A stretch of DNA of 64,000 nucleotides from NCBI GenBank assembly GCA_937885575.1, contig CALABO010000008.1:6294-70293 (forward strand). The letters are read 5' to 3'. Made by a program: the position numbers and the translations under genes. This DNA comes from an uncultured Pseudomonadota bacterium. Lineage in GTDB: Bacteria; Pseudomonadota; Alphaproteobacteria; Rs-D84. Under the pieces are notes generated by a model that was given only the letters and a program-made list of their open reading frames with translations, was not told where the DNA came from and did not search any database. This document shows positions 4,199 to 57,656 of this stretch, piece by piece; position 1 is the first letter of the stretch, and each line of letters opens with the position of its first letter.

Positions 4199-4229
4199 CA
4201 CTAACCACTAACACTTACACTAACCACTA
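4199..4229 (-). repeat. Family B heptamer tract B1 (GTTAGTG-like units)
   Basis: The minus strand reads TAGTGGTTAGTGTAAGTGTTAGTGGTTAGTG. The tract contains the TAG stop of the SPOR gene and abuts the tatA RBS. Confidence 0.85.
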
Positions 4230-5503: not shown

Positions 5504-7261
5504 TTATATATCCAAGTCCCTGTTCTTAATTTTACTTTTAAGGTTTTGAATAAAATCATCCAATTGGACATTAAATTCCTGTTTCCCATCACGACGTCTT
5601 ACAGATATTGTTTGCGATTCTAATTCTTTATCACCAACAATAATCATGTAAGGAATCTGTTTCAGTTGTGCATTACGTATCTTTTTCTGCATACTTTCCG
5701 AAGAATAATCTTTCTTGATACGCAAGCCCGCCGTAGCAGTTTTTATTTCTACATTTTGCAACTTTTCTGCGATACTGTCCGCGTACACTTTGCAACGGTC
5801 AGAAATCGGAATAATTACCGCATGCACCGGCGACAACCAAACCGGCAATTTTCCGGCCAAATGTTCCAACATCAGCCCCATAAACCGCCCCAAAGAACCG
5901 TAAACAGTCCGGTGAATAAGAATCGGTGTCTTCTTATTGCCATCTTTATCTATGTACACACAGTTAAAGTTTCGTGGCAATTGAAAATCCAATTGAATAG
6001 TCCCAGTTTGCCATTCACGTCCCAAACTATCAACCATTTGAATATCTAACTTTGGACCATAAAACGCACCATCTTTTTCCTTGATTCCGAATCCATTATT
6101 TCCGAATCGGTTAACCAAGATTTTTTTCAAAATGGTTTCTGCCTTGTTCCAAGTTTCAATATCACCCATAAAGTCATCAGGTCTTGTTGATAATTTGATA
6201 AAATATTTCATATCAAACAACTTATAGTAATATTGAATTATATCAATAATACGATTATATTCGTCTTCTATCATATCTTCACTGATGAAAATATGTGCAT
6301 CGTCTTGATTAAATTCATATGTTCTAAACAAGCCGTTTAAAGCCCCTGAATTTTCATAACGATAAAGCATATCTGCATCAGCCATACGCCAAGGCAAATC
6401 ATGATAACTGCGTGGTTCATGTTGGTACGCGACAATAGAATTTGGACAAGACATAGGTGCCAAAGCAAAAACATTATTGTCGTCTTCTTTGAACACAAAC
6501 ATACTATCCTTATAGTGATCCCAATGTCCACTTGTTTCATACAATTCTTTTTTGTTCATGAGTGGTGAACGGAATTCAAAATAACCGTGTTTTTCATGAT
6601 ATTCCGACCAAAAGTTATACAACTCACGATAAACAATCCACCCACCCGGCATATAGTACGGAACACCAGGCGATCTTTCATCAAAGAAAAACAAACCCAA
6701 CGCCGGCCCAATTTTTCTATGGTCGCGTTTTGCGGCTTCTTCTTGCATTTTAAGGAAGTTATCCAATTCTTCTTTACTTGCAAACGCGTCAACATAGATA
6801 CGTTGCAACATTTTATTTTTCGAATCGCCCTTCCAATACGCGCCGGCGACACTGCGAATCTTGAAACCATCACGCGGCAAATCTTTGGAACTTTCCACAT
6901 GCGGCCCGCGACACAGATCGGTAAAATCGCGGAAAGTATAAATCGACAGTTTTTCGCCCGCCGCATCGTATTCGTTCAACCATTCCATTTTATACGGCTG
7001 GTCCGCAAAGATTTTTTTCGCTTCGTCCAGGTCGACAATTTTCTGTTCAAAACGACCGTTTGATTTAATCAATTCGCGCATTTCCCGTTCAATCTTTTCA
7101 AAATCTTCTTCGGAAAAGCGATAATCGGTATCAAAGTCGTAATAGAATCCGTTTTCAATCGCCGGCCCACCCGCAAACTTTACATCCGGGTGCAGTTTTT
7201 GCACCGCCGCCGCCATCACGTGCGCCAACGAGTGCCTAATCATTTCAATTGGATATGACAT
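5504..7261 (-). CDS. thrS: Threonine--tRNA ligase (no TGS domain)
   Basis: 585 aa. It starts at the editing-domain motif RHSLAHVM (HxxxH) and also has CRGPH, a class II core and a C-terminal anticodon-binding domain. Confidence 0.9.
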   Translation of the reverse strand: MSYPIEMIRHSLAHVMAAAVQKLHPDVKFAGGPAIENGFYYDFDTDYRFSEEDFEKIEREMRELIKSNGRFEQKIVDLDEAKKIFADQPYKMEWLNEYDAAGEKLSIYTFRDFTDLCRGPHVESSKDLPRDGFKIRSVAGAYWKGDSKNKMLQRIYVDAFASKEELDNFLKMQEEAAKRDHRKIGPALGLFFFDERSPGVPYYMPGGWIVYRELYNFWSEYHEKHGYFEFRSPLMNKKELYETSGHWDHYKDSMFVFKEDDNNVFALAPMSCPNSIVAYQHEPRSYHDLPWRMADADMLYRYENSGALNGLFRTYEFNQDDAHIFISEDMIEDEYNRIIDIIQYYYKLFDMKYFIKLSTRPDDFMGDIETWNKAETILKKILVNRFGNNGFGIKEKDGAFYGPKLDIQMVDSLGREWQTGTIQLDFQLPRNFNCVYIDKDGNKKTPILIHRTVYGSLGRFMGLMLEHLAGKLPVWLSPVHAVIIPISDRCKVYADSIAEKLQNVEIKTATAGLRIKKDYSSESMQKKIRNAQLKQIPYMIIVGDKELESQTISVRRRDGKQEFNVQLDDFIQNLKSKIKNRDLDI

Positions 7262-7442: not shown

Positions 7443-8189
7443 CTATACATCCAATATCGCACCGTACAGAACTGCAAAGAAAAAACACACTGTTCCGGCG
7501 ATTACAAATAAATGCCAAATCGCATGCGAAAACTTTAATTTCCGCCAAAGGTAAAATACCACCCCAATCGAATACGAAAGCCCGCCGGCAAGGATAAACC
7601 ACAATCCCCGCGCCGGCACACGTGCCAACATAATCGGCAAAATAAATATCAATGTCCACCCCATCAACAAATAAAGCGCAACAACCCATTTGGGCTGTTG
7701 CCGGGGATTACGAATTTTGACTATTGCGCCAAAAATTACAATCGCCCATAAAATTCCGAACACCGTCCAACCCAAACCGCCACGCAAATTCACCAACAAA
7801 AACGGCGTGTATGTGCCGGCAATCAATGCATAGATGGCAACACTGTCCCACACTTCGAAAAAACATTCGCCACGCCGCCCAATAAGTGCATGGCACATTG
7901 TTGAACCAAAATAAAGCGTGAACATAGTGAACCCAAAAATCGCACACGACACAACCGACCAAGCGTTTCCGTAAATTGCCGCGAACACCACAAGCAATGT
8001 TAAACCCGCAATCGCAAGCCCAATACCAATTCCATGCGTTAGGATATTCAACACTTCTTCGCCATGCGTCGACCGCCGTTCCCATCGAAAAAGCCCTGTC
8101 GCGCGCAGACACCGCAACAACCGCGACGCATGCCGGTCGCCACGAACCCGCTTTAATTTCGTTCTAACAATTTTACGATTTTTGGTCAT
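7443..8189 (-). CDS. Hemolysin III family (PAQR) membrane protein
   Basis: 248 aa with multiple TM helices, a basic N-terminal extension, and an ATGA overlap with the gltX stop. Confidence 0.75.
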   Translation of the reverse strand: MTKNRKIVRTKLKRVRGDRHASRLLRCLRATGLFRWERRSTHGEEVLNILTHGIGIGLAIAGLTLLVVFAAIYGNAWSVVSCAIFGFTMFTLYFGSTMCHALIGRRGECFFEVWDSVAIYALIAGTYTPFLLVNLRGGLGWTVFGILWAIVIFGAIVKIRNPRQQPKWVVALYLLMGWTLIFILPIMLARVPARGLWFILAGGLSYSIGVVFYLWRKLKFSHAIWHLFVIAGTVCFFFAVLYGAILDV

Positions 8190-11138: not shown

Positions 11139-12095
11139 ATGAAAAGATTTTTTGAAAAATTTTTATGGGGTATTTTATGGCTATTGTCGATTACGCTTGT
11201 GACGACACTCTGGATGAATACAAATTATGGGTTTGATATGTTATCGGCAGCACATTGGGAATACCTTGGCACACTCCAAGCGAACCGTTCAGAAGTTAAG
11301 CCGGATTTTTACATATCACTTATTGGCGCATTATTCATTGCGCTAATTGGGCTATATTTGATTATGCGTCCACGCACACGGCGCATAAAACCAACCGAAC
11401 CCGCAAAATCAAATATAATTATTGTTTCGCAACAGCCCGTGGTTCAACCTGCACCAAAACCCGAACCCCCAAAACAGGAAAAAACAGAAACTAAAATTGA
11501 AAGAGGCGAACAAACTTTTACACCGCGTCCCGCGCCGGCAATATCTTTGAGCAACCGACCGATATCGCCGATGGGACTGCGCCCCCCAACCCAACAAAGG
11601 CCAACCACAACTGTGCCGACACCGCCACTGCAACCAACGCCAAAAATAAATACAAACGCGCCAGTCGCCCAAAATACAAATTCACCGGAAATTCAGCGCG
11701 CACTTGAATCATCCGGATACATCATTAAAAAGTGCGACCGAATTGGGAAATTGCAAAACCCAACGGTTGCCATCGCATACGACCAATCGGTATGGATTAT
11801 CGCAACCAAGGCATCGCCCGATACAATGGTTGATGCGATTCAGACACTTGTCACAATATTTGATGATACACTTGGCGAAACGGCAAACGACATCAAACTT
11901 CGTGGATTTATAATTGAACCCACCGAACCCGTAAAGCGCAGCGACAACATAATCATAACATTTGACAATACGGCCGATTTTGTGAAATATGTGAACGAAC
12001 ACAAAAACACAAAACCCGACGATTACGATGCCGAATTGTTCGAAGCGTTTTCTACTTACATCAGCACCGTAACCGGATATATTGGAAAATCATAA
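11139..12095 (+). CDS. Membrane protein with Pro-rich linker, hypothetical
   Basis: Two N-terminal TM helices, a Pro/Thr/Gln-rich linker and a C-terminal globular region. ATG 11139 is preferred over the track TTG at 11130. Confidence 0.55.
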   Translation: MKRFFEKFLWGILWLLSITLVTTLWMNTNYGFDMLSAAHWEYLGTLQANRSEVKPDFYISLIGALFIALIGLYLIMRPRTRRIKPTEPAKSNIIIVSQQPVVQPAPKPEPPKQEKTETKIERGEQTFTPRPAPAISLSNRPISPMGLRPPTQQRPTTTVPTPPLQPTPKINTNAPVAQNTNSPEIQRALESSGYIIKKCDRIGKLQNPTVAIAYDQSVWIIATKASPDTMVDAIQTLVTIFDDTLGETANDIKLRGFIIEPTEPVKRSDNIIITFDNTADFVKYVNEHKNTKPDDYDAELFEAFSTYISTVTGYIGKS

Positions 12096-27515: not shown

Positions 27516-27544
27516 GTTAGTGGTAAGTGTTAGTGGCTAGTGAG
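27516..27544 (+). repeat. Family B heptamer tract B2
   Basis: GTTAGTGGTAAGTGTTAGTGGCTAGTGAG. Confidence 0.85.
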
Positions 27545-27560
27545 AAATTCCAGAGTGCAA

Positions 27561-27611
27561 AGTTCCCATCCTGTGGAGGGGTGGCCGCGAACGCGGACGG
27601 GGTGGTCTTTC
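27561..27611 (+). repeat. Family A half-element A5a (right-half type)
   Basis: AGTTCCCATCCTGTGGAGGGGTGGCCGCGAACGCGGACGGGGTGGTCTTTC. Confidence 0.8.
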
Positions 27612-27637
27612 ATAAATATAAAATTTCCGGAAAACGC

Positions 27638-27684
27638 GAAAGACCACCTCCCCCTTCGGGTACTCCTCCGCAGGAGGAGAACTT
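27638..27684 (+). repeat. Family A half-element A5b (left-half type)
   Basis: GAAAGACCACCTCCCCCTTCGGGTACTCCTCCGCAGGAGGAGAACTT. Its terminus is the inverted repeat of the A5a terminus. Confidence 0.8.
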
Positions 27685-27691
27685 AGTCCGC

Positions 27692-27716
27692 AAAAAACAC
27701 GGGTGCGAACGCGCCC
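27692..27716 (-). terminator. Intrinsic terminator downstream of mutL
   Basis: Minus-strand hairpin GGGCGCG-TT-CGCACCC (one mismatch) followed by GTGTTTTTTG. Confidence 0.55.
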
Positions 27717-27750
27717 ACACTAACACTAACCACTTACACTACCTACTAAC
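27716..27750 (-). repeat. Family B heptamer tract B3
   Basis: The plus strand reads CACACTAACACTAACCACTTACACTACCTACTAAC. The tract contains the mutL TAG stop (27746..27748). Confidence 0.85.
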
Positions 27751-35316: not shown

Positions 35317-35360
35317 CTCACTAACCACTCACACTAGCCACTCACACTAGCCACTAACAC
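35317..35360 (-). repeat. Family B heptamer tract B4
   Basis: The plus strand reads CTCACTAACCACTCACACTAGCCACTCACACTAGCCACTAACAC. Confidence 0.85.
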
Positions 35361-43233: not shown

Positions 43234-43677
43234 ATGAACTTTCCTATACTTGATGCAGATGCTTTAATAATAAACGAAAATGATATCACGACATTTTATG
43301 GTCGCCCAACGTATTATTACCGTGGTGTTGAAATAGGACACAGACAATATGTAATAAAAAAATTCCAAGAACTGCGGGACATTATATTCAACGAAACAAG
43401 AAAAAACATAACAGAAATTCATTTAATAACAACAAAGACCGGTGGTACAAAAGTCAATTTCCCGTGCGGTTCGCTTACATATCCATCTTTAAAACCGGGA
43501 TACAATGTGTGTTGTCGTGTAAAATTTAGTGATGGGACATTTGGTTCTGGTACAATGTGGGTATACCATCGCCGCAGCACCACAACAGATGGCGCCGCGG
43601 TATATTGCGCAAAACATTTCATAGACGACGCACTAAACAACCCAGTTTTCCGTAAATCACTAACCACCAGCCACTAA
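43234..43677 (+). CDS. Hypothetical protein
   Basis: 147-aa ORF from ATG 43234 with no recognised family. The last six codons (SLTTSH) and the TAA stop lie inside heptamer tract B5. Confidence 0.45.
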   Translation: MNFPILDADALIINENDITTFYGRPTYYYRGVEIGHRQYVIKKFQELRDIIFNETRKNITEIHLITTKTGGTKVNFPCGSLTYPSLKPGYNVCCRVKFSDGTFGSGTMWVYHRRSTTTDGAAVYCAKHFIDDALNNPVFRKSLTTSH

Positions 43678-43685
43678 CACTAACT
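43658..43685 (-). repeat. Family B heptamer tract B5
   Basis: The plus strand reads CACTAACCACCAGCCACTAACACTAAC, between convergent genes. Confidence 0.85.
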
Positions 43686-44894: not shown

Positions 44895-44994
44895 CGCATC
44901 CGTCTTCGCTACCGCTCCGTCGCGACCAGACGCACCAACACCAAGCCAGGGCAAAGCCCCAGCGCAGTCTCGGCACCGCACCAGCGGTGACGGA
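44895..44994 (-). repeat. Family C structured repeat, copy C1
   Basis: The core AACACCAAGCCAGGGCAAAGCCCCAGCGCAGTCTCGGC...GGTGACGGA is shared with 46321..46399. Confidence 0.8.
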
Positions 44995-45020
44995 TAACCA
45001 CCAGCCACTAACAATTACAC
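44994..45020 (-). repeat. Family B heptamer tract B6
   Basis: The plus strand reads ATAACCACCAGCCACTAACAATTACAC. The tract contains the MFS TAA stop (45015..45017). Confidence 0.75.
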
Positions 45021-46244: not shown

Positions 46245-46267
46245 AAAACGACCGAATCGCAAAAAAT

Positions 46268-46297
46268 GGTTAGTGTTAATGTAAGTGGTTAGTGGTA
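46268..46297 (+). repeat. Family B heptamer tract B7
   Basis: GGTTAGTGTTAATGTAAGTGGTTAGTGGTA. Confidence 0.85.
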
Positions 46298-46320
46298 TCT
46301 GGAATTTGTTCGTAATTACT

Positions 46321-46399
46321 AACACCAAGCCGGGGCAAAGCCCCGGCGCAGTCTCGGCGTAGTCGCGTCACCGCTGTGCGGTGACGGACGAAGACGGAT
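46321..46399 (-). repeat. Family C structured repeat, copy C2
   Basis: AACACCAAGCCGGGGCAAAGCCCCGGCGCAGTCTCGGC...GTCACCGCTGTGCGGTGACGGACGAAGACGGAT, with two perfect 8-bp hairpins. Confidence 0.8.
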
Positions 46400-46405
46400 A
46401 AAAAA

Positions 46406-49745: not shown

Positions 49746-49787
49746 TCGCCACTTCCAACAAAGTCGGTAATTTCTATGACAAGATTA

Positions 49788-49905
49788 GCGACACCTCCCG
49801 GCGTTCCACGCCGTACTCCTCTGGCCAGAGGAGAACTTTGTTCTCGTCCTGTTGCAGTCCAAGTTCCCCTCTGGCTAGAGGGGTGCCCGCAGGGCGGGGT
49901 GTCGC
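49788..49905 (+). repeat. Family A element, full copy A3
   Basis: GCGACACCTCCCGGCGTTCCACGCCGTACTCCTCTGGCCAGAGGAGAAC...AAGTTCCCCTCTGGCTAGAGGGGTGCCCGCAGGGCGGGGTGTCGC. Confidence 0.9.
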
Positions 49906-49929
49906 AAAAAACGCGGGGCGACGCCCCGC
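49906..49929 (-). terminator. Intrinsic terminator downstream of yebC
   Basis: Minus-strand hairpin GCGGGGCG-T-CGCCCCGC followed by GTTTTTT. Confidence 0.7.
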
Positions 49930-49930
49930 G

Positions 49931-49961
49931 CACTAGCACTGACCACTTACACTAACCACTA
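49931..49961 (-). repeat. Family B heptamer tract B8
   Basis: The plus strand reads CACTAGCACTGACCACTTACACTAACCACTA. The tract contains the yebC TAG stop (49959..49961). Confidence 0.85.
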
Positions 49962-51303: not shown

Positions 51304-52626
51304 ATGAATAACAACGACACAATCTTTGCATTATCATCTGGGCATGGGAAATCCGGCGTTGCGGTGATTCGCATATCGGGCAACAATTTACACGATTTTG
51401 CAAAAAAAATTATTGGCCGTACGCCAGTACCCCGACATGCGTATTTCACAAACTTGCGCGATGACAATGGTGAAATTATTGACCAATGCGTTGTTATTTA
51501 TTTTGCCGCGCCGCACAGTTTCACCGGCACAGACATCATTGAAATTCAGTGCCACGGCGCGCCGGCGGTGATAAATAAAATCTTTGAATTTTTGCGCGGG
51601 CATAATATGCGGGTCGCCACGCCCGGCGAATTTTCGCGCCGCGCATTTTACAACGGCAAAATGGATTTGTCGGATGTAGATGGACTAATCGCGTTGCTTG
51701 ATGCCCAGACGGACAAACAGCGCGCCGCGGCCCTGCGTTCCATGATGGGCGGCGACAGTGCCGTCTATGAAAATTGGCGCGACCAAATGTTGGAAATATC
51801 CGCATACGCCGCCGCAATGACGGACTATGACGCCGACGATTTACCGCCAAACATTTCTGATATAATTTTGGAACATATAAAAACGCTCTATACGGCGGTT
51901 TCCGGCGTATTGGGCAATTACAAAGTTTCACGTGCAATAATGTGCGGAATAAATATCGCAATCGTTGGCGAAACAAATGTCGGAAAATCTTCGTTATTCA
52001 ATCGCATCGTTGGCGCAAACCGCGCCATAGTATCCGATATCCCCGGCACAACGCGCGATGTCGTGTCCGCACAAATGGACATTGACGGATACATGGTAAA
52101 TTTATCTGATACGGCCGGCCTGCGCAATACGGTGGATTTTGTGGAAAAAATCGGAATTGAACGAACAAATACCGAAATCGCCAACGCCGATATAGTTTTA
52201 CATGTCATCGATGCCACTAGTTCCCCTTCGCCAGCGAAGGGGTGGCGGGTAGCACCTGACGGGGTAGTGGAAATTCTAATTGTAAATAAATCTGACACAA
52301 TCGATTCACGCGACATACGCGGCGCAATCTATGTTTCCGCCAAGACTGGTGCGGGCTTGCCGGAACTTATGCACGAAATCCGGAACCGAATCGCCGAAAT
52401 CACAAACAACGGCGAAAGCACGGTCATGATAAACGCACGCACATACGACCTGTTGATGACCGTGCGCGATGAATTGTTTGCGGCATTGAACAATTTTAAT
52501 GGCGACTATGATATTTTATCTGAACAGGTGCGATACGCGGCGGACGCAATTGGACGAATACTCGGCACAATCGGCACCGCCGAAATACTTGATAAGACCT
52601 TTTCACAATTGTGTTTGGGAAAATAA
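51304..52626 (+). CDS. mnmE: tRNA modification GTPase MnmE (carries an in-frame repeat insertion)
   Basis: N-terminal domain IFALSSGHGKSGVAVIRISG, G domain GETNVGKSS/DTAG/NKSD and a C-terminal CLGK. ATG 51304. Confidence 0.9.
   Translation: MNNNDTIFALSSGHGKSGVAVIRISGNNLHDFAKKIIGRTPVPRHAYFTNLRDDNGEIIDQCVVIYFAAPHSFTGTDIIEIQCHGAPAVINKIFEFLRGHNMRVATPGEFSRRAFYNGKMDLSDVDGLIALLDAQTDKQRAAALRSMMGGDSAVYENWRDQMLEISAYAAAMTDYDADDLPPNISDIILEHIKTLYTAVSGVLGNYKVSRAIMCGINIAIVGETNVGKSSLFNRIVGANRAIVSDIPGTTRDVVSAQMDIDGYMVNLSDTAGLRNTVDFVEKIGIERTNTEIANADIVLHVIDATSSPSPAKGWRVAPDGVVEILIVNKSDTIDSRDIRGAIYVSAKTGAGLPELMHEIRNRIAEITNNGESTVMINARTYDLLMTVRDELFAALNNFNGDYDILSEQVRYAADAIGRILGTIGTAEILDKTFSQLCLGK
52219..52270 (+). 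repeat. Family A half-element A6 embedded in frame in mnmE
   Basis: AGTTCCCCTTCGCCAGCGAAGGGGTGGCGGGTAGCACCTGACGGGGTAGTGG has the same architecture as 26043..26089 and 27561..27611. It encodes SSPSPAKGWRVAPDGVV between the G3 and G4 motifs. Confidence 0.75.
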
Positions 52627-52661
52627 GTGTTAGTGGTTAGTGTTAGTGTAAGTGGTTAGTG
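52627..52661 (+). repeat. Family B heptamer tract B9
   Basis: GTGTTAGTGGTTAGTGTTAGTGTAAGTGGTTAGTG immediately after the mnmE TAA. It has TAG/TAA in all three frames. Confidence 0.9.
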
Positions 52662-52685
52662 CGGGTGCGAATGCACCCGTTTTTT
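52662..52685 (+). terminator. Intrinsic terminator after mnmE
   Basis: CGGGTGC-GAAT-GCACCCG followed by TTTTTT. Confidence 0.8.
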
Positions 52686-52687
52686 AT

Positions 52688-52717
52688 AACTAACCACTAG
52701 CCAATTACACTAATCAC
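52688..52717 (-). repeat. Family B heptamer tract B10
   Basis: The plus strand reads AACTAACCACTAGCCAATTACACTAATCAC. The tract contains the TGA stop of the acyl-CoA ligase gene (52714..52716). Confidence 0.8.
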
Positions 52718-54366: not shown

Positions 54367-55134
54367 ATGAAAATACTAACCATCAACATCAATTCGATTC
54401 GCGCCCACGCGGAAAGTTTTATAAAAATCCTTGAATCGGGCGAATATGACACAATACTGGTCCAAGAATTAAAGGTTGAAACCGCCGGTTTTCCGCACAA
54501 CATATTCGAAGAATACGGATACAATATAAAGGTTTTCGGACAAAAAAGTTGGAACGGCGTTGCAACTTTTTCAAAATTTTCTATCGAAGACACCGTCCGC
54601 GGAATACCGAACTATACCGATATAAACGCGCGATTTTTGGAAACCGTGATTGATGGACGCATCCGTGTTATAAATGTCTATATGCCGAACGGCGAATCTG
54701 AAACATCGCCCAAATTCGAATATAAAATTGATTGGATGCGCGCATTTGGCGAATACATAAAACAATACATTGATTCACCCGAATCGGTAATAATCGGCGG
54801 TGATTTTAATGTGGCAATTGCCGACCGCGATATTTGGAAACCGGAAAACTATGTGGGGTCCAGTATTTCTGCACCCGCCGCACGCGAAATCTTGCAATCT
54901 TGGTTTGATGACGGTTGGACCGATGTGTGGCGCAAAATGCACCCGGACGAAATCGGATACACTTGGTATGGATATCGCCAGCGCAGTTTTGAAAACAAAC
55001 ACGGCCTGCGCCTTGACTATTTTATGGCAAACAAAACCGCCGCGAAAATGATTACAAAATGCGAAATTGACTGTGGTCCGCGCAGTGGCGAAAAACCGAC
55101 CGACCATTGCGGATTGATGATAAAGATTGATTAG
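54367..55134 (+). CDS. xthA: Exodeoxyribonuclease III
   Basis: The start is at ATG 54367 (MKILTININSIRA). EEP-family motifs QELK, GDFNV and a C-terminal DHCGL. Confidence 0.9.
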   Translation: MKILTININSIRAHAESFIKILESGEYDTILVQELKVETAGFPHNIFEEYGYNIKVFGQKSWNGVATFSKFSIEDTVRGIPNYTDINARFLETVIDGRIRVINVYMPNGESETSPKFEYKIDWMRAFGEYIKQYIDSPESVIIGGDFNVAIADRDIWKPENYVGSSISAPAAREILQSWFDDGWTDVWRKMHPDEIGYTWYGYRQRSFENKHGLRLDYFMANKTAAKMITKCEIDCGPRSGEKPTDHCGLMIKID

Positions 55135-57656
55135 TCGCGTTCGTCCGCCCGCGCAAAGTCATCGTATTCTTGATATTTTTGTTCACCGGTTCGGCGATAT
55201 TCGTATTCCGCGCCGCCCGCCGAATACATATTAAACAATTCCGTAACCTTGCTATACGCCGCATTTATTGCCGTTGCGGTTTCTTCCACATCGTATTTTA
55301 TTATTTTTGCATCGCCGGATTTAAGTTGCAAAAATTGCATAATCGGCATTTCACTTTTGACGGTTGTCCGAAAACGAAAGCCGGCATTTTGCAGCATATA
55401 CGCCTCTAACGGCAACTGTGGCATTGTCCCGTCCAAAAGTTGCTTTTTACTTGGTGTGGCACCCGTTTTTATATCCAGCACCCCACCGTCCCAAATTCTA
55501 TCGGCACGCGCGCGAACATTACGACCGGCAATATTTGCCATGCCTTCAATTTCAACAAACGCGCCACGTGTGTCCCGCAACATTTGCAGTGCGATTGGTG
55601 CAATTTCCATGAACCGCCGATGCCAGAAATAAAATATAAGGTTATTATTACCCAACACTTCCAACGCGCGTCTGTCCATTTCCGCAATCAGCCACTGTTC
55701 GGTCGCGCCCGCGGGCGCACTTTCCAATACCGCATGAACCAATGTCCCAAAATCACGCACATCGGCCCCAACCCAATAATCATCCGTTCGGCGCAAACGC
55801 AGTATATGCCGCACATAGAACGCATATGGATTATGTATCAACAATTCCAAACTTGTGACATATACATCAGACCAATCTGCGGGCGGTTGCGGGTTGGCAT
55901 AACAAAGTGGCCTTGATTCAACCACATCACGCGAACGCACAACATTTAATATGTCATTTGCCGCATCTGTATCAAACCGACCACGTGCAACAATAACACG
56001 TGAAATAAATCGCGATTCTTGTGTTTGCACACCACCCGAAACCTTGCTGCGCAACCAATACACTTCGCATCCACATGACAAATTCATAAAATCAAGTGCC
56101 ATCAGTGACACCTTGTGATTCGGTGATGGCAACCCAATTTTATTCGATATTTGCCGTGGCAACCACGGGTTTTCGTACCCGGTTGCCGGAAACATACCTT
56201 CGTTTAATCCGGTAAGTATAACCACGTCCGCCGTTTGCATACGCGATTCTATTGTTCCCAAAACACAGACGCTTGCCGTATCATTCATCGGCGGTCGCAC
56301 ACGAACACCGCCAAGGGTATCCGCAATAAACGCACGCGCATCGGTCAAACTAACCTGTATACTTTTACCCGTCAAACAATCGGAAAGTTTTTTTATCGCC
56401 GTCCAAATCGCAACAGATTCGGAACTTTCAACATCAAACTGTGGTGCAAAACTTTCGGCATATTTATCAACAATTTCCGCAACCGTATCAAACAAATTAG
56501 AATTATTACGCGAATAAATTTCTTCAAAATAATTAGTGCCATTTTCAATCCAATCATCAAACAAATTCAAAATCGCGCGCCCCGCCGCGGTCATTGTACC
56601 GGACAGGCCACCCGAAAAATCTGCATCAATGTTTCGCCGTTCAAATTCGCTTTTCAATCGTTGGTTTCCCGCCGCATCGGGCGTTATAATTAAAACCGTT
56701 TTTTTATCGCGAATTGCACGCGCCGTAATTTCGGCGGCGGCGGACGCTTCTTCGGATTCACGCGCGGCCTCTATTAAATGACAATTCGATAAATCACAAC
56801 CACTTAAATCGCTGTATACGTTGGAAAACGCCGTATTCATAAAATCAATATGCGACGCGCCGACATCAATTTCTTGGACATCTAATATATCAACACCGAT
56901 TGCCGACAAAAATTTATATTCTGAATTATATGGGTTTGTATCCAATTCAAAATCTTCCTTTTGTCCGGAAATCCGCCCCGGCAAAATTATCCGACCATTT
57001 GGCAACGATGCGATTACCGACATTAAATCACGCGTGACCGGCACACTTGCGGTTGACCCACAAACAATAACCAACGATTTTTTCGCGTCCATATTTTTCA
57101 CATAATCACACCACGCGTATACGTCAAAATTCCGGCGTTTTGTTTCGGTATCACGCCCACCAAAAATTTCATTTTGCACCCGCGACAGCACCGATAAAAT
57201 TTGCGCCTTGTCTTGAAAATGTTTTGCATATTTATCATCAACCAATGTCGTCCAATCAATTGTGGCAATATCAACAGAACTATTTTCCAAATAATCCTGC
57301 ATAGTAATAAGTGTTCGCGCAACCGGCAACGCATTTGATATATTTTTAATTGTCGGAATTGACGCCAACAAATACGCAGTTGCGACAACGCGTTCCAATG
57401 TTGAAACAACGCCAAATTTTTCATCATCCAAATCTGTATCTTCAACCCCTTCGCCCAACGGCACAAGGCGCGGCAACAGTGTCGCATATCCAACTTTATC
57501 AACAATCATTTTTTCAACACTGCGCACCGCACGCCGATTTGGTAAAAAAATCAGCATATCCGTTAAATTGATTCCGGATTCGCCCATCAGCACCCAAAGA
57601 CCATCCAAAATCTTTGCCGGATTCGAAACATAAAAGATATTTTCATTTAATGCCAA
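55131..57656 (-). CDS. addB: Double-strand break repair protein AddB (alpha-type, PD-(D/E)XK nuclease C-terminus)
   Basis: 841 aa with a TTG start. The C-terminal nuclease motif is GRNVRARADRIWDGGVLDIKTG. The inactivated helicase-like N-terminus has no Walker A motif. Confidence 0.6.
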   Translation of the reverse strand: MALNENIFYVSNPAKILDGLWVLMGESGINLTDMLIFLPNRRAVRSVEKMIVDKVGYATLLPRLVPLGEGVEDTDLDDEKFGVVSTLERVVATAYLLASIPTIKNISNALPVARTLITMQDYLENSSVDIATIDWTTLVDDKYAKHFQDKAQILSVLSRVQNEIFGGRDTETKRRNFDVYAWCDYVKNMDAKKSLVIVCGSTASVPVTRDLMSVIASLPNGRIILPGRISGQKEDFELDTNPYNSEYKFLSAIGVDILDVQEIDVGASHIDFMNTAFSNVYSDLSGCDLSNCHLIEAARESEEASAAAEITARAIRDKKTVLIITPDAAGNQRLKSEFERRNIDADFSGGLSGTMTAAGRAILNLFDDWIENGTNYFEEIYSRNNSNLFDTVAEIVDKYAESFAPQFDVESSESVAIWTAIKKLSDCLTGKSIQVSLTDARAFIADTLGGVRVRPPMNDTASVCVLGTIESRMQTADVVILTGLNEGMFPATGYENPWLPRQISNKIGLPSPNHKVSLMALDFMNLSCGCEVYWLRSKVSGGVQTQESRFISRVIVARGRFDTDAANDILNVVRSRDVVESRPLCYANPQPPADWSDVYVTSLELLIHNPYAFYVRHILRLRRTDDYWVGADVRDFGTLVHAVLESAPAGATEQWLIAEMDRRALEVLGNNNLIFYFWHRRFMEIAPIALQMLRDTRGAFVEIEGMANIAGRNVRARADRIWDGGVLDIKTGATPSKKQLLDGTMPQLPLEAYMLQNAGFRFRTTVKSEMPIMQFLQLKSGDAKIIKYDVEETATAINAAYSKVTELFNMYSAGGAEYEYRRTGEQKYQEYDDFARADERD

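Follow-up and report, generated by a model that had tools for sequence, protein, structure and literature searches.

Ten short tracts of degenerate GTTAGTG-like units (B1 to B10) lie at gene ends in a 64,000-nt stretch of contig CALABO010000008.1 (assembly GCA_937885575.1) from an uncultured alphaproteobacterium; this stretch, analyzed at its full length, is referred to here as the window. The tracts belong to a genuine repeat family that is specific to one lineage of small-genome gut bacteria, here termed the Enterousia clade, and they are a new, quadruplex-incapable, lineage-specific example of a repeat class known from Xanthomonas and Nostoc (Rehm et al., 2015, PMC4692102). We propose, and give the proposal an even chance of being right, that they are slippage-prone arms of mosaic intergenic elements that are tolerated at the ends of genes.

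It has been known for over ten years that polar heptamer repeats occur at the boundaries of bacterial genes. Their role is not agreed, G-quadruplex formation being the leading idea for those of Xanthomonas and Nostoc. The Enterousia tracts follow the same rules and form convergent pairs without quadruplexes, and therefore the shared rule must come from something else, such as strand composition, start and stop codon content, a single-strand-binding factor or the mode in which the arrays originate. Moreover, together with palindromes that resemble miniature inverted-repeat transposable elements (MITEs), the tracts fill expanded spacers in genomes of less than 1 Mb with about 90% coding density, in which non-coding DNA would be expected to be scarce, and tracts and MITE-like families make up much of the difference between close strains in these intergenic regions.

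Repeat unit, sample, and host lineage

All ten tracts that a previous sequence-only reading had placed at gene ends are found where it located them (Table 1), and none of them is inside a gene. With up to two mismatches allowed, GTTAGTGGTTAGTG is matched 19 times in the window against an expectation of 0.26 from shuffles, none of which reached 19, and a regular expression for periodic [AG]GTG returns 7 matches where 0.15 are expected. The same reading had taken the unit to be a heptamer, which is partly correct. The 7-mers GTTAGTG and GCTAGTG are indeed present, as is GATAGTG, but they alternate with the 6-mers TTAGTG and TAAGTG to give a period of 13 nt, and Tandem Repeats Finder accordingly reports array periods of 6, 7, and 13 in the window.

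The wider analysis rests on a search with the 17-mer AGTGTTAGTGGYYAGTG against 185,579 species genomes (one per species, bacteria and archaea), which yielded at least 119 stretches of 8 kb. The listed stretches, the window and three syntenic loci together represent about 0.8 Mb of DNA with 767 provisional genes, called heuristically from open reading frames (ORFs) and a codon score, and ~174 tracts. The 8-kb loci were picked for their tract content and so the occupancy figures given below come from an ascertained sample; individual loci are labeled with L-numbers (L001, L123, and so on). Within this sample alternating spacings outnumber non-alternating ones by 340 to 94, and the conserved core of the unit is TAGTG, separated from the next by one or two variable bases (unit xTAGTG). 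One strand of the tracts is G-rich and almost free of C (G 40%, T 38%, A 21%, C 1.8%), and its complement is nearly G-free; we refer to these as the G and C strands, and to a tract as being in G or C sense according to which of them is on the strand of the gene. The most frequent number of units is five (73 of 173 tracts), corresponding to a usual size of about 30 nt. The inner end is anchored, with GTTAGT[GA] as the final unit of 96 of 173 tracts, and apart from this hardly any tract sequence is found twice. Most tracts are mixtures of TTAGTG, TAAGTG, GATAGTG, and GCTAGTG units, and homogeneous units are confined to long arrays. The array at L018:5293-5445 exceeds 150 nt and 20 units, shows a clear 13-nt periodicity and lies directly between a stop codon and a terminator. 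A tract on its own has a minimum free energy of 0, that is, it is unstructured. A G-quadruplex basis is rejected, as the canonical motif is found in none of 173 tracts and the G2 motif, with loops of up to 7 nt, in just one.

Among the matches listed, about 90 stretches are from Candidatus Enterousia or from metagenome-assembled genomes (MAGs) of rumen and gut alphaproteobacteria, and the others are single matches, mostly coding or due to chance, together with heptamer arrays in heterocystous cyanobacteria. The window itself can be assigned to Candidatus Enterousia or a near relative. Its MnmE protein is 69-96% identical to those of uncultured Alphaproteobacteria MAGs, and it is syntenic with a contig of GCA_045646605.1, labeled Candidatus Enterousia sp., the MnmE identity being 92%. 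Candidatus Enterousia belongs to the order Rs-D84, and its genomes, according to the tabulated MAGs, are mostly smaller than 1 Mb with a coding density of about 90%.

Several occurrences outside the typical chromosomal setting may be mentioned here. Pure (GGTTAGT)n arrays are present in L019 (Stigonema), L079 and L114 (Fischerella), L122 (a cyanobacterium), and L073 (Planctomycetota), so that as a simple repeat the unit is not confined to the Enterousia clade. Loci L010 (a Saccharibacteria bin) and L068 (a Prevotellaceae bin) have the typical stop-tract-terminator layout or a G…C pair, and these may be misbinned Enterousia contigs or may indicate a wider distribution of the tracts. The same tract architecture is found in a prophage-like contig and in a primase/recombinase element. 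The human-associated mobile-element contig L128, with primase and serine recombinase genes, carries long GTTAGTG/GTTAGTT arrays and a second C-free heptamer (AAAGTGA/AGAGTGA) immediately 3′ of the stop codons of consecutive genes (630-800, 1225-1320, and 6070-6170).

Position and polarity at gene boundaries

Placement of the tracts is strongly polar. In the clade sample, 67 tracts start in G sense no more than 10 nt from the stop codon of a gene on the same strand and none (0/91) does so in C sense, and essentially no tracts occur inside genes, so that the positional and strand bias suspected from the window extends to the clade. In C sense, 25 tracts are located within 30 nt upstream of a start codon, for example those of lepA, rpoC, obg, infA, and typA, and the few G-sense cases upstream of starts are mostly artefacts of the ORF caller, in which the start was called at a GTG inside the tract. 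Considering the nearest gene boundary within 30 nt, the G strand points away from it in 93 cases versus 9. Neighboring tracts within 300 nt of each other are arranged as 5′-G…C-3′ in all 35 pairs, none being C…G and none having the same orientation, which extends the inverted pairing seen in the window to the sample. The G…C intervals between consecutive tracts are non-coding, save for a small ORF in three orthologous intervals and one tRNA gene, and every interval of another kind encloses genes. At L120:6436-6661 the G arm and the C arm fit exactly around a tRNA gene that has its own terminator. A tract is present in 36% of the spacers between convergent genes and in 12% of the co-directional or divergent spacers, and intergenic regions with a tract measure about 200 nt versus 18-91 nt for those without. 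Unstructured tract sequence sets the terminator hairpin about 30 nt apart from the stop codon.

The unit is rich in stop codons, and the gene ends reflect this. Genes adjoining a tract use TAG as their stop in 41 of 67 cases compared with a background of 22%, and in about half of the stop-adjacent genes the gene's own stop codon is a TAG or TAA within the tract. It had been noted that successive stop codons should rotate through all three frames, and in B9 the offsets given for them (5, 12, 18, 23, and 31) are correct and do cover three frames. Three-frame coverage is, however, incomplete elsewhere, being present in G sense in 109 of 173 tracts and in C sense in 72 of 173. The complementary strand does supply TAA as was claimed, and it does so in two to three frames.

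In the window, seven tracts (B1, B3, B5, B6, B8, B9, and B10) start 0-4 nt from a same-strand stop codon in G sense, and a clear GC hairpin with a T-run comes directly after B3, B8, and B9, the tract itself being outside the hairpin. The proposed order of stop codon, G-sense tract and terminator hairpin therefore holds for mutL (B3), yebC (B8), and mnmE (B9), but B2, B4, and B7 do not follow a same-strand gene and are instead the C-sense or outer arms of G…C brackets. B7 abuts the −35 hexamer of the MFS promoter at 46262. B10 is situated on the far side of the B9 hairpin; an A-run lies in between, and B10 lacks a T-run of its own. Folding of the B9-hairpin-B10 unit gives −45.4 kcal/mol (z = −8.4), with a similar fold for the opposite strand. 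About one quarter of the terminators in the window carry a tract. Rfam gave no match in the window and only tRNA in related loci.

Table 1. Positions of the ten tracts, and of the core that separates B9 from B10, in the window.
Feature	Position	Strand	Sense and context
B1	4199..4229	-	G sense; fills the interval from the TAG stop (4229-4227) of an FtsN/SPOR-like gene to the tatA Shine-Dalgarno/ATG; no terminator
B2	27516..27544	+	Outer G arm; forms a G…C bracket with B3 around two MITE-like repeats and the mutL terminator
B3	27716..27750	-	G sense; first TAG (27748-27746) is the mutL stop; hairpin and T-run adjoin at ~27696-27715
B4	35317..35360	-	C sense relative to serS-typA; the typA start is 61 nt downstream
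B5	43658..43685	-	G sense; 4 nt past the TGA stop of a 320-aa gene upstream of recA; contains GCTGGTGG
B6	44994..45020	-	Degenerate, G sense; overlaps the TAA stop (45017-45015) of an MFS transporter gene
B7	46268..46297	+	Inner-right arm of a mosaic insertion with the secB terminator on one side and the MFS promoter on the other; C sense for the MFS gene
B8	49931..49961	-	G sense; first TAG (49961-49959) is the yebC stop; followed by hairpin 49931-49911 and T-run
B9	52627..52661	+	G sense; begins directly after the mnmE TAA stop (52624-52626)
Core between B9 and B10	52661..52686	+	GC hairpin GCGGGTGCGAATGCACCCGT and T-run
B10	52688..52717	-	G sense for the convergent AMP-dependent ligase gene, overlapping its TGA (52716-52714); C arm on the + strand

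Several further MITE-like families, among them the ccgtcaccgc...gcggtgacgg and ctcctctggccagaggag types, are found at 27545-27715, 44900-44990, 46300-46400, and 49750-49910 of the window, where they are in or beside the tract brackets and make the spacers concerned far longer than those of tract-poor relatives.

Two candidate explanations of the placement were rejected. A replication-strand bias is at odds with B9 and B10, which follow genes on opposite strands, and with the symmetry of the pairs. DNA uptake sequences are single motifs that also occur within genes, whereas the tracts are tandem arrays that are kept out of genes.

Possible origin and competing explanations

According to the reading proposed above, each tract would be one arm of an element that consists of a G arm at its 5′ end, a palindromic core and a C arm at its 3′ end, with one of the arms often missing. 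GC terminator hairpins, the 42-nt TCTGGAAT...ATTCCAGA palindrome, and MITE-like repeats in nested arrangement could all serve as cores, as could, on occasion, a tRNA gene or a small ORF. What the G arms adjoin is consistent with this. Of 172, 59 meet a GC hairpin and T-run within 22 nt, 28 meet the 42-nt palindrome, and the remainder meet other small repeats or plain spacer. The adjoining hairpins vary in sequence from site to site, and of the 16 CGGGCGC-loop-GCGCCCG terminators, 13 are joined to a G arm without a gap. The TCTGGAAT palindrome almost always has a G arm on its left and a C arm on its right, and two near-identical copies of it are present in one MAG (L026). It had been suggested that the tracts are preferred targets of the other repeat families. 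Other repeats do lie inside G…C brackets, but because they do so and because the palindrome is almost always flanked by arms, the tracts fit better as arms of mosaic elements than as targets.

If the element is an inverted repeat, its G strand will be found past stop codons and its C strand before start codons, so that the inverted G…C architecture alone accounts for the polarity toward genes, and we consider this the most economical reading. The length and sequence of the arms would shift by slippage and recombination, and the arms would spread or vanish together with the mosaic elements. In line with slippage, the copies are head-to-tail and their number varies between relatives (18-31 nt at yebC). 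Persistence exactly at gene ends would then mean that the arms do little harm there, and such tolerance could be expected because the C-free strand is dense in stop codons, the G-free strand is without starts and Shine-Dalgarno sequences, and neither strand folds alone. Transcribed from the first strand, a tract would present TAG or TAA in rotating frames, often including the gene's own stop, and transcribed from the second it would allow no ATG, GTG, TTG, or Shine-Dalgarno sequence. In read-through transcripts both arms may pair, which would extend the terminator into a long stem.

The tracts are gained, lost and resized quickly among relatives, as is evident from a comparison of nine syntenic loci with MnmE identities of 69-96%. 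The tract at the 3′ end of yebC is present in five lineages, with 18-31 nt and differing units, and absent in two, and the 3′ end of the AMP-ligase gene carries two to five units in nearly all lineages. The closest relatives of the window (MnmE 95-96%) have almost no tracts in the syntenic region. Nothing is inserted in the spacer between secB and the MFS gene in the most distant two lineages, L124 and L125; in L003, L123, and the window the terminator and the promoter are separated by a G…mosaic…C insertion. A further insertion, located at the MFS stop codon, begins in an A-run, and downstream of it L003 retains the old stop codon. In the window the mnmE strand carries a module of GGTTAGTG, hairpin, and T-run, and in L123 the ligase strand carries it.

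The same loci differ in their gene content. The convergent mnmE/AMP-ligase spacer (52627-52713 in the window; also L001, L002, L003, L123, L124, L125, and L139) is a hotspot of gene gain and loss. L001, L003, and L139 have a 76-aa gene there, L002, L123, and L124 have unrelated genes of 370-459 aa, and the window and L125 have nothing but the tract-hairpin-tract module. The closest relative, at 96% MnmE identity, carries an inserted Peptidase_S8 gene between ruvA and mnmE (L138:4854-6008) that is absent from the window and the other loci. A conserved leader-like sequence, gatgggaatctggttcgggg...gtcgtaatcc...ccccgac, precedes variable genes that apparently encode signal peptides (L002:11380-11600; L123 at ~7750-7850 and 11330-11560; L069 near 4300). 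This leader resembles a riboswitch but has no significant Rfam family, the best being sRNA-Xcc1 with an E value of 0.69.

Several findings weigh against the arms-of-elements proposal. About 60% of the tracts are solo. Slippage predicts local homogeneity, and the mixture of units with a conserved TAGTG, a sharp five-unit mode and an anchored GTTAGT[GA] looks more like a constrained motif. Complementarity between partner arms is not raised (0.674 versus 0.702 for non-partners; permutation p = 0.97), and on this comparison both selection for pairing within pairs and recent palindromic duplication were rejected. There is no consistent target-site duplication around the G…C elements, a master copy of the tract was not found, and no transposase was seen in the annotated syntenic loci. 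At the 3′ ends of the AMP-ligase gene and yebC the motifs persist down to 69-75% MnmE identity, at which the flanking spacer can no longer be aligned by eye, and this suggests either selection or continuing homogenization. Finally, the G/C polarity arose with unrelated units in Xanthomonas, Nostoc, and Enterousia, and hence descent from one element cannot explain it. The conserved pentamer, the size mode, the anchored unit, the persistence at old sites and the independent origins of the polarity are not covered by a reading of the tracts as tolerated arms, and may instead reflect a real cis-acting function.

One such function, which we regard as rather improbable, is that of a periodic RNA-binding array, in which about five UAGUG motifs per tract would be recognized by an oligomeric or multi-domain protein that binds single-stranded RNA and tunes the terminator or the start codon. 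Models would be TRAP and HutP acting on (G/U)AG repeats, or ribosomal protein S1 and the cold-shock (Csp) proteins acting on leaders. The features that would fit such an array are the conserved core with a variable spacer and free unit order, the sharp five-unit mode in a fully unstructured tract, the abutment on terminator hairpins and the persistence of the motif at orthologous sites. In addition, similar proposals have been made for the TAACTGA repeats (PMC4679880), and a preprint reports that the heptamer repeats of Nostoc affect expression. Yet only about 25% of terminators have a tract, the closest relatives lack most of the tracts, and the C arms at start codons would need a second explanation. 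Searches by tblastn with HutP and TRAP found nothing in the about 0.8 Mb of clade DNA, and there was likewise no match in the sampled loci with Hfq and RNase III, although as this is a partial sample the negative result is uninformative.

To much the same degree we doubt a classical MITE family driven by a transposase, in which the tracts would serve as terminal inverted repeats and the solo tracts would be decayed half-elements. Inverted-repeat arms around a short non-coding core, many copies and presence/absence polymorphism are all found. The polarity is exclusively G…C, the palindrome core is almost always two-armed with near-identical copies in one genome, orthologous sites are either filled or empty, and tracts are present in mobile-element contigs. 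What is missing is a consistent target-site duplication and a shared consensus sequence. The arms vary in length and unit order and are not matched to their partners, the cores are mutually unrelated (terminators, a tRNA gene, a small ORF), and no transposase was seen in the annotated syntenic loci. The genome is smaller than 1 Mb. Nor do the tracts fit the REP/BIME pattern, in that a tract is not palindromic, has a folding free energy of 0 on its own and adjoins hairpins that differ between sites.

Two further explanations assign a selected role to the strand asymmetry and both are quite unlikely. In the first, the G-free, C-rich strand (38% C by unit) would serve as a Rho-loading gate on transcripts that enter the gene, namely antisense RNA entering 3′ ends and untranslated leaders at 5′ ends, and the polarity would be selected. 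The attraction of this idea is that one factor covers the polarity at both 3′ and 5′ ends, and the C strand is indeed G-free and unstructured and Rho is encoded in the clade, as found by tblastn. However, a rut site, which stimulates Rho, is C-rich, G-poor, unstructured RNA of about 60-80 nt, and a tract offers ~30 nt, in which a YC dimer comes once every 13 nt. In many cases the C arm is not in the leader but upstream of the promoter, tracts are not conserved in close relatives, and the same polarity is seen in Nostoc, although to our knowledge cyanobacteria lack Rho.

The second, raised by the sequence-only reading, is a dedicated translational stop cassette that would halt read-through or frameshifted ribosomes in all three frames before they reach the terminator, and it seems no less doubtful than the Rho gate. 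Stops are present in three frames in 63% of tracts, the five-unit mode is just above the minimum for three frames, and the tract provides the stop in about half of the adjacent genes. The other 37% of tracts fall short of three frames, and most genes are without a tract. The idea is weak as a main function for three reasons, namely that the C strand never follows genes (0/91 after a stop codon, in spite of its TAA in two to three frames), that most terminators are tract-free, and that the Xanthomonas repeat, the unit of which is stop-free by inspection, as is that of Nostoc, obeys the same positional rule (PMC4692102).

Least probable, by our assessment very much so, is a DNA-level recombination signal. 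The active orientation of Chi is known from RecBCD and AddAB. The tracts would be either Chi-like arrays that stop AddAB resection from breaks in the core or inverted repeats that allow inversion of the core. Around a central break, the G…C geometry corresponds to the active orientation of Chi; B5 and B6 contain the Chi octamer of Escherichia coli, and there is an AddB-like gene in the window. Inversion would agree with the strand of the GGTTAGTG module, which is that of mnmE in the window and that of the ligase gene in L123. Outside the tracts, however, words of the motif show no over-representation and no unusual skew in the 64 kb (G-rich versus other strand: AGTGG 48/35, TAGTGG 8/6, GTTAGTG 3/1, none being among the most skewed), and inversion was not directly observed. 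The exact octamer, GCTGGTGG, is at 43665-43672 in B5 and at 45000-45007 in B6, both on the minus strand, and the AddB-like PDDEXK gene is at 55131-57656.

Relation to known repeat classes

A broader proposition, which we view as unlikely, is that the tracts and the heptamers of Xanthomonas and Nostoc represent one general, quadruplex-independent signal of gene boundaries, with a host factor reading the strand asymmetry to insulate transcription units. If so, outgoing transcripts would carry a C-free, G/U-rich periodic tract and incoming ones its G-free complement, and the factor would be a conserved component of termination, decay or translation. Enterousia would then be the cleanest system in which to find that factor, because it has no quadruplexes and its tracts are directly on terminator hairpins.

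The tracts can be compared with several well-known systems. The TRAP and HutP sites of Bacillus consist of UAG/GAG triplets every 5-7 nt in unstructured RNA near a terminator, and they are single, operon-specific sites with a known protein. In Enterousia there would be about a hundred sites per genome, as extrapolated from 10 tracts in 64 kb, with UAG/UAA every 6-7 nt. The Correia/nemis, ERIC and REP/BIME families are small, non-coding inverted repeats at gene ends that are co-transcribed, form long hairpins and mosaics and vary between strains. They have a defined consensus, Correia elements have a TA target duplication, and REP elements have a GTAG head, a palindrome of their own and a RAYT transposase. 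The Enterousia arms, in contrast, are degenerate tandem arrays without a master copy. The STRR heptamers of cyanobacteria are comparable tandem repeats. The long simple sequence repeats of prokaryotes are more generally lineage-specific, with units of 5-11 nt among which heptamers dominate, and an origin by slippage has been proposed (Mrazek, 2007). They are not known to be described as arms of palindromic cores or as having a strict gene-boundary polarity.

In a search of full-text literature the exact strings GTTAGTG and CACTAAC turned up only in primers and unrelated sequences. The sequence-only reading knew of no described counterpart, but two are available. The TAACTGA arrays of marine Beggiatoaceae, cyanobacteria, and Bacteroidetes have two to six units at about 170 intergenic sites (MacGregor, 2015, PMC4679880). 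Like the tracts, they are heptamer arrays that are strongly oriented to genes and the stop codons within their units limit where they can be located. They abut start codons, often in place of the Shine-Dalgarno sequence, and differ from the Enterousia tracts in being mostly upstream of starts, in a single orientation, with inverted pairs at 1 of 170 sites and no link to terminators (PMC4679880).

The closer counterpart is represented by the GGGAATC repeats of Xanthomonas and the GGGGA(T/C)T repeats of Nostoc, about 90% of which are intergenic (Rehm et al., 2015, PMC4692102). They overlap stop codons, prefer four units and vary between relatives, and in Xanthomonas there are 70-75 convergent inverted pairs per genome. 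The rule for this class is that the G-rich strand is in sense orientation within 50 bp past the stop codon and in antisense just upstream of an ORF, and the authors ascribed these features to quadruplex formation and assigned no function (PMC4692102). It is the same rule, together with the convergent pairs, the stop overlap and the preference in unit number, that establishes these repeats as a counterpart. Tandem units of ~7 nt with G/C strand asymmetry, a mostly intergenic location, a preferred number of units (four there, five in Enterousia), and length and sequence that vary between relatives are likewise shared. The difference is that the Enterousia unit is a compound of 6 + 7 nt, dense in stop codons and without quadruplex potential (for which at least four G3 runs are needed), and that the tracts adjoin terminator hairpins and MITE-like palindromes in a reduced host genome of less than 1 Mb.

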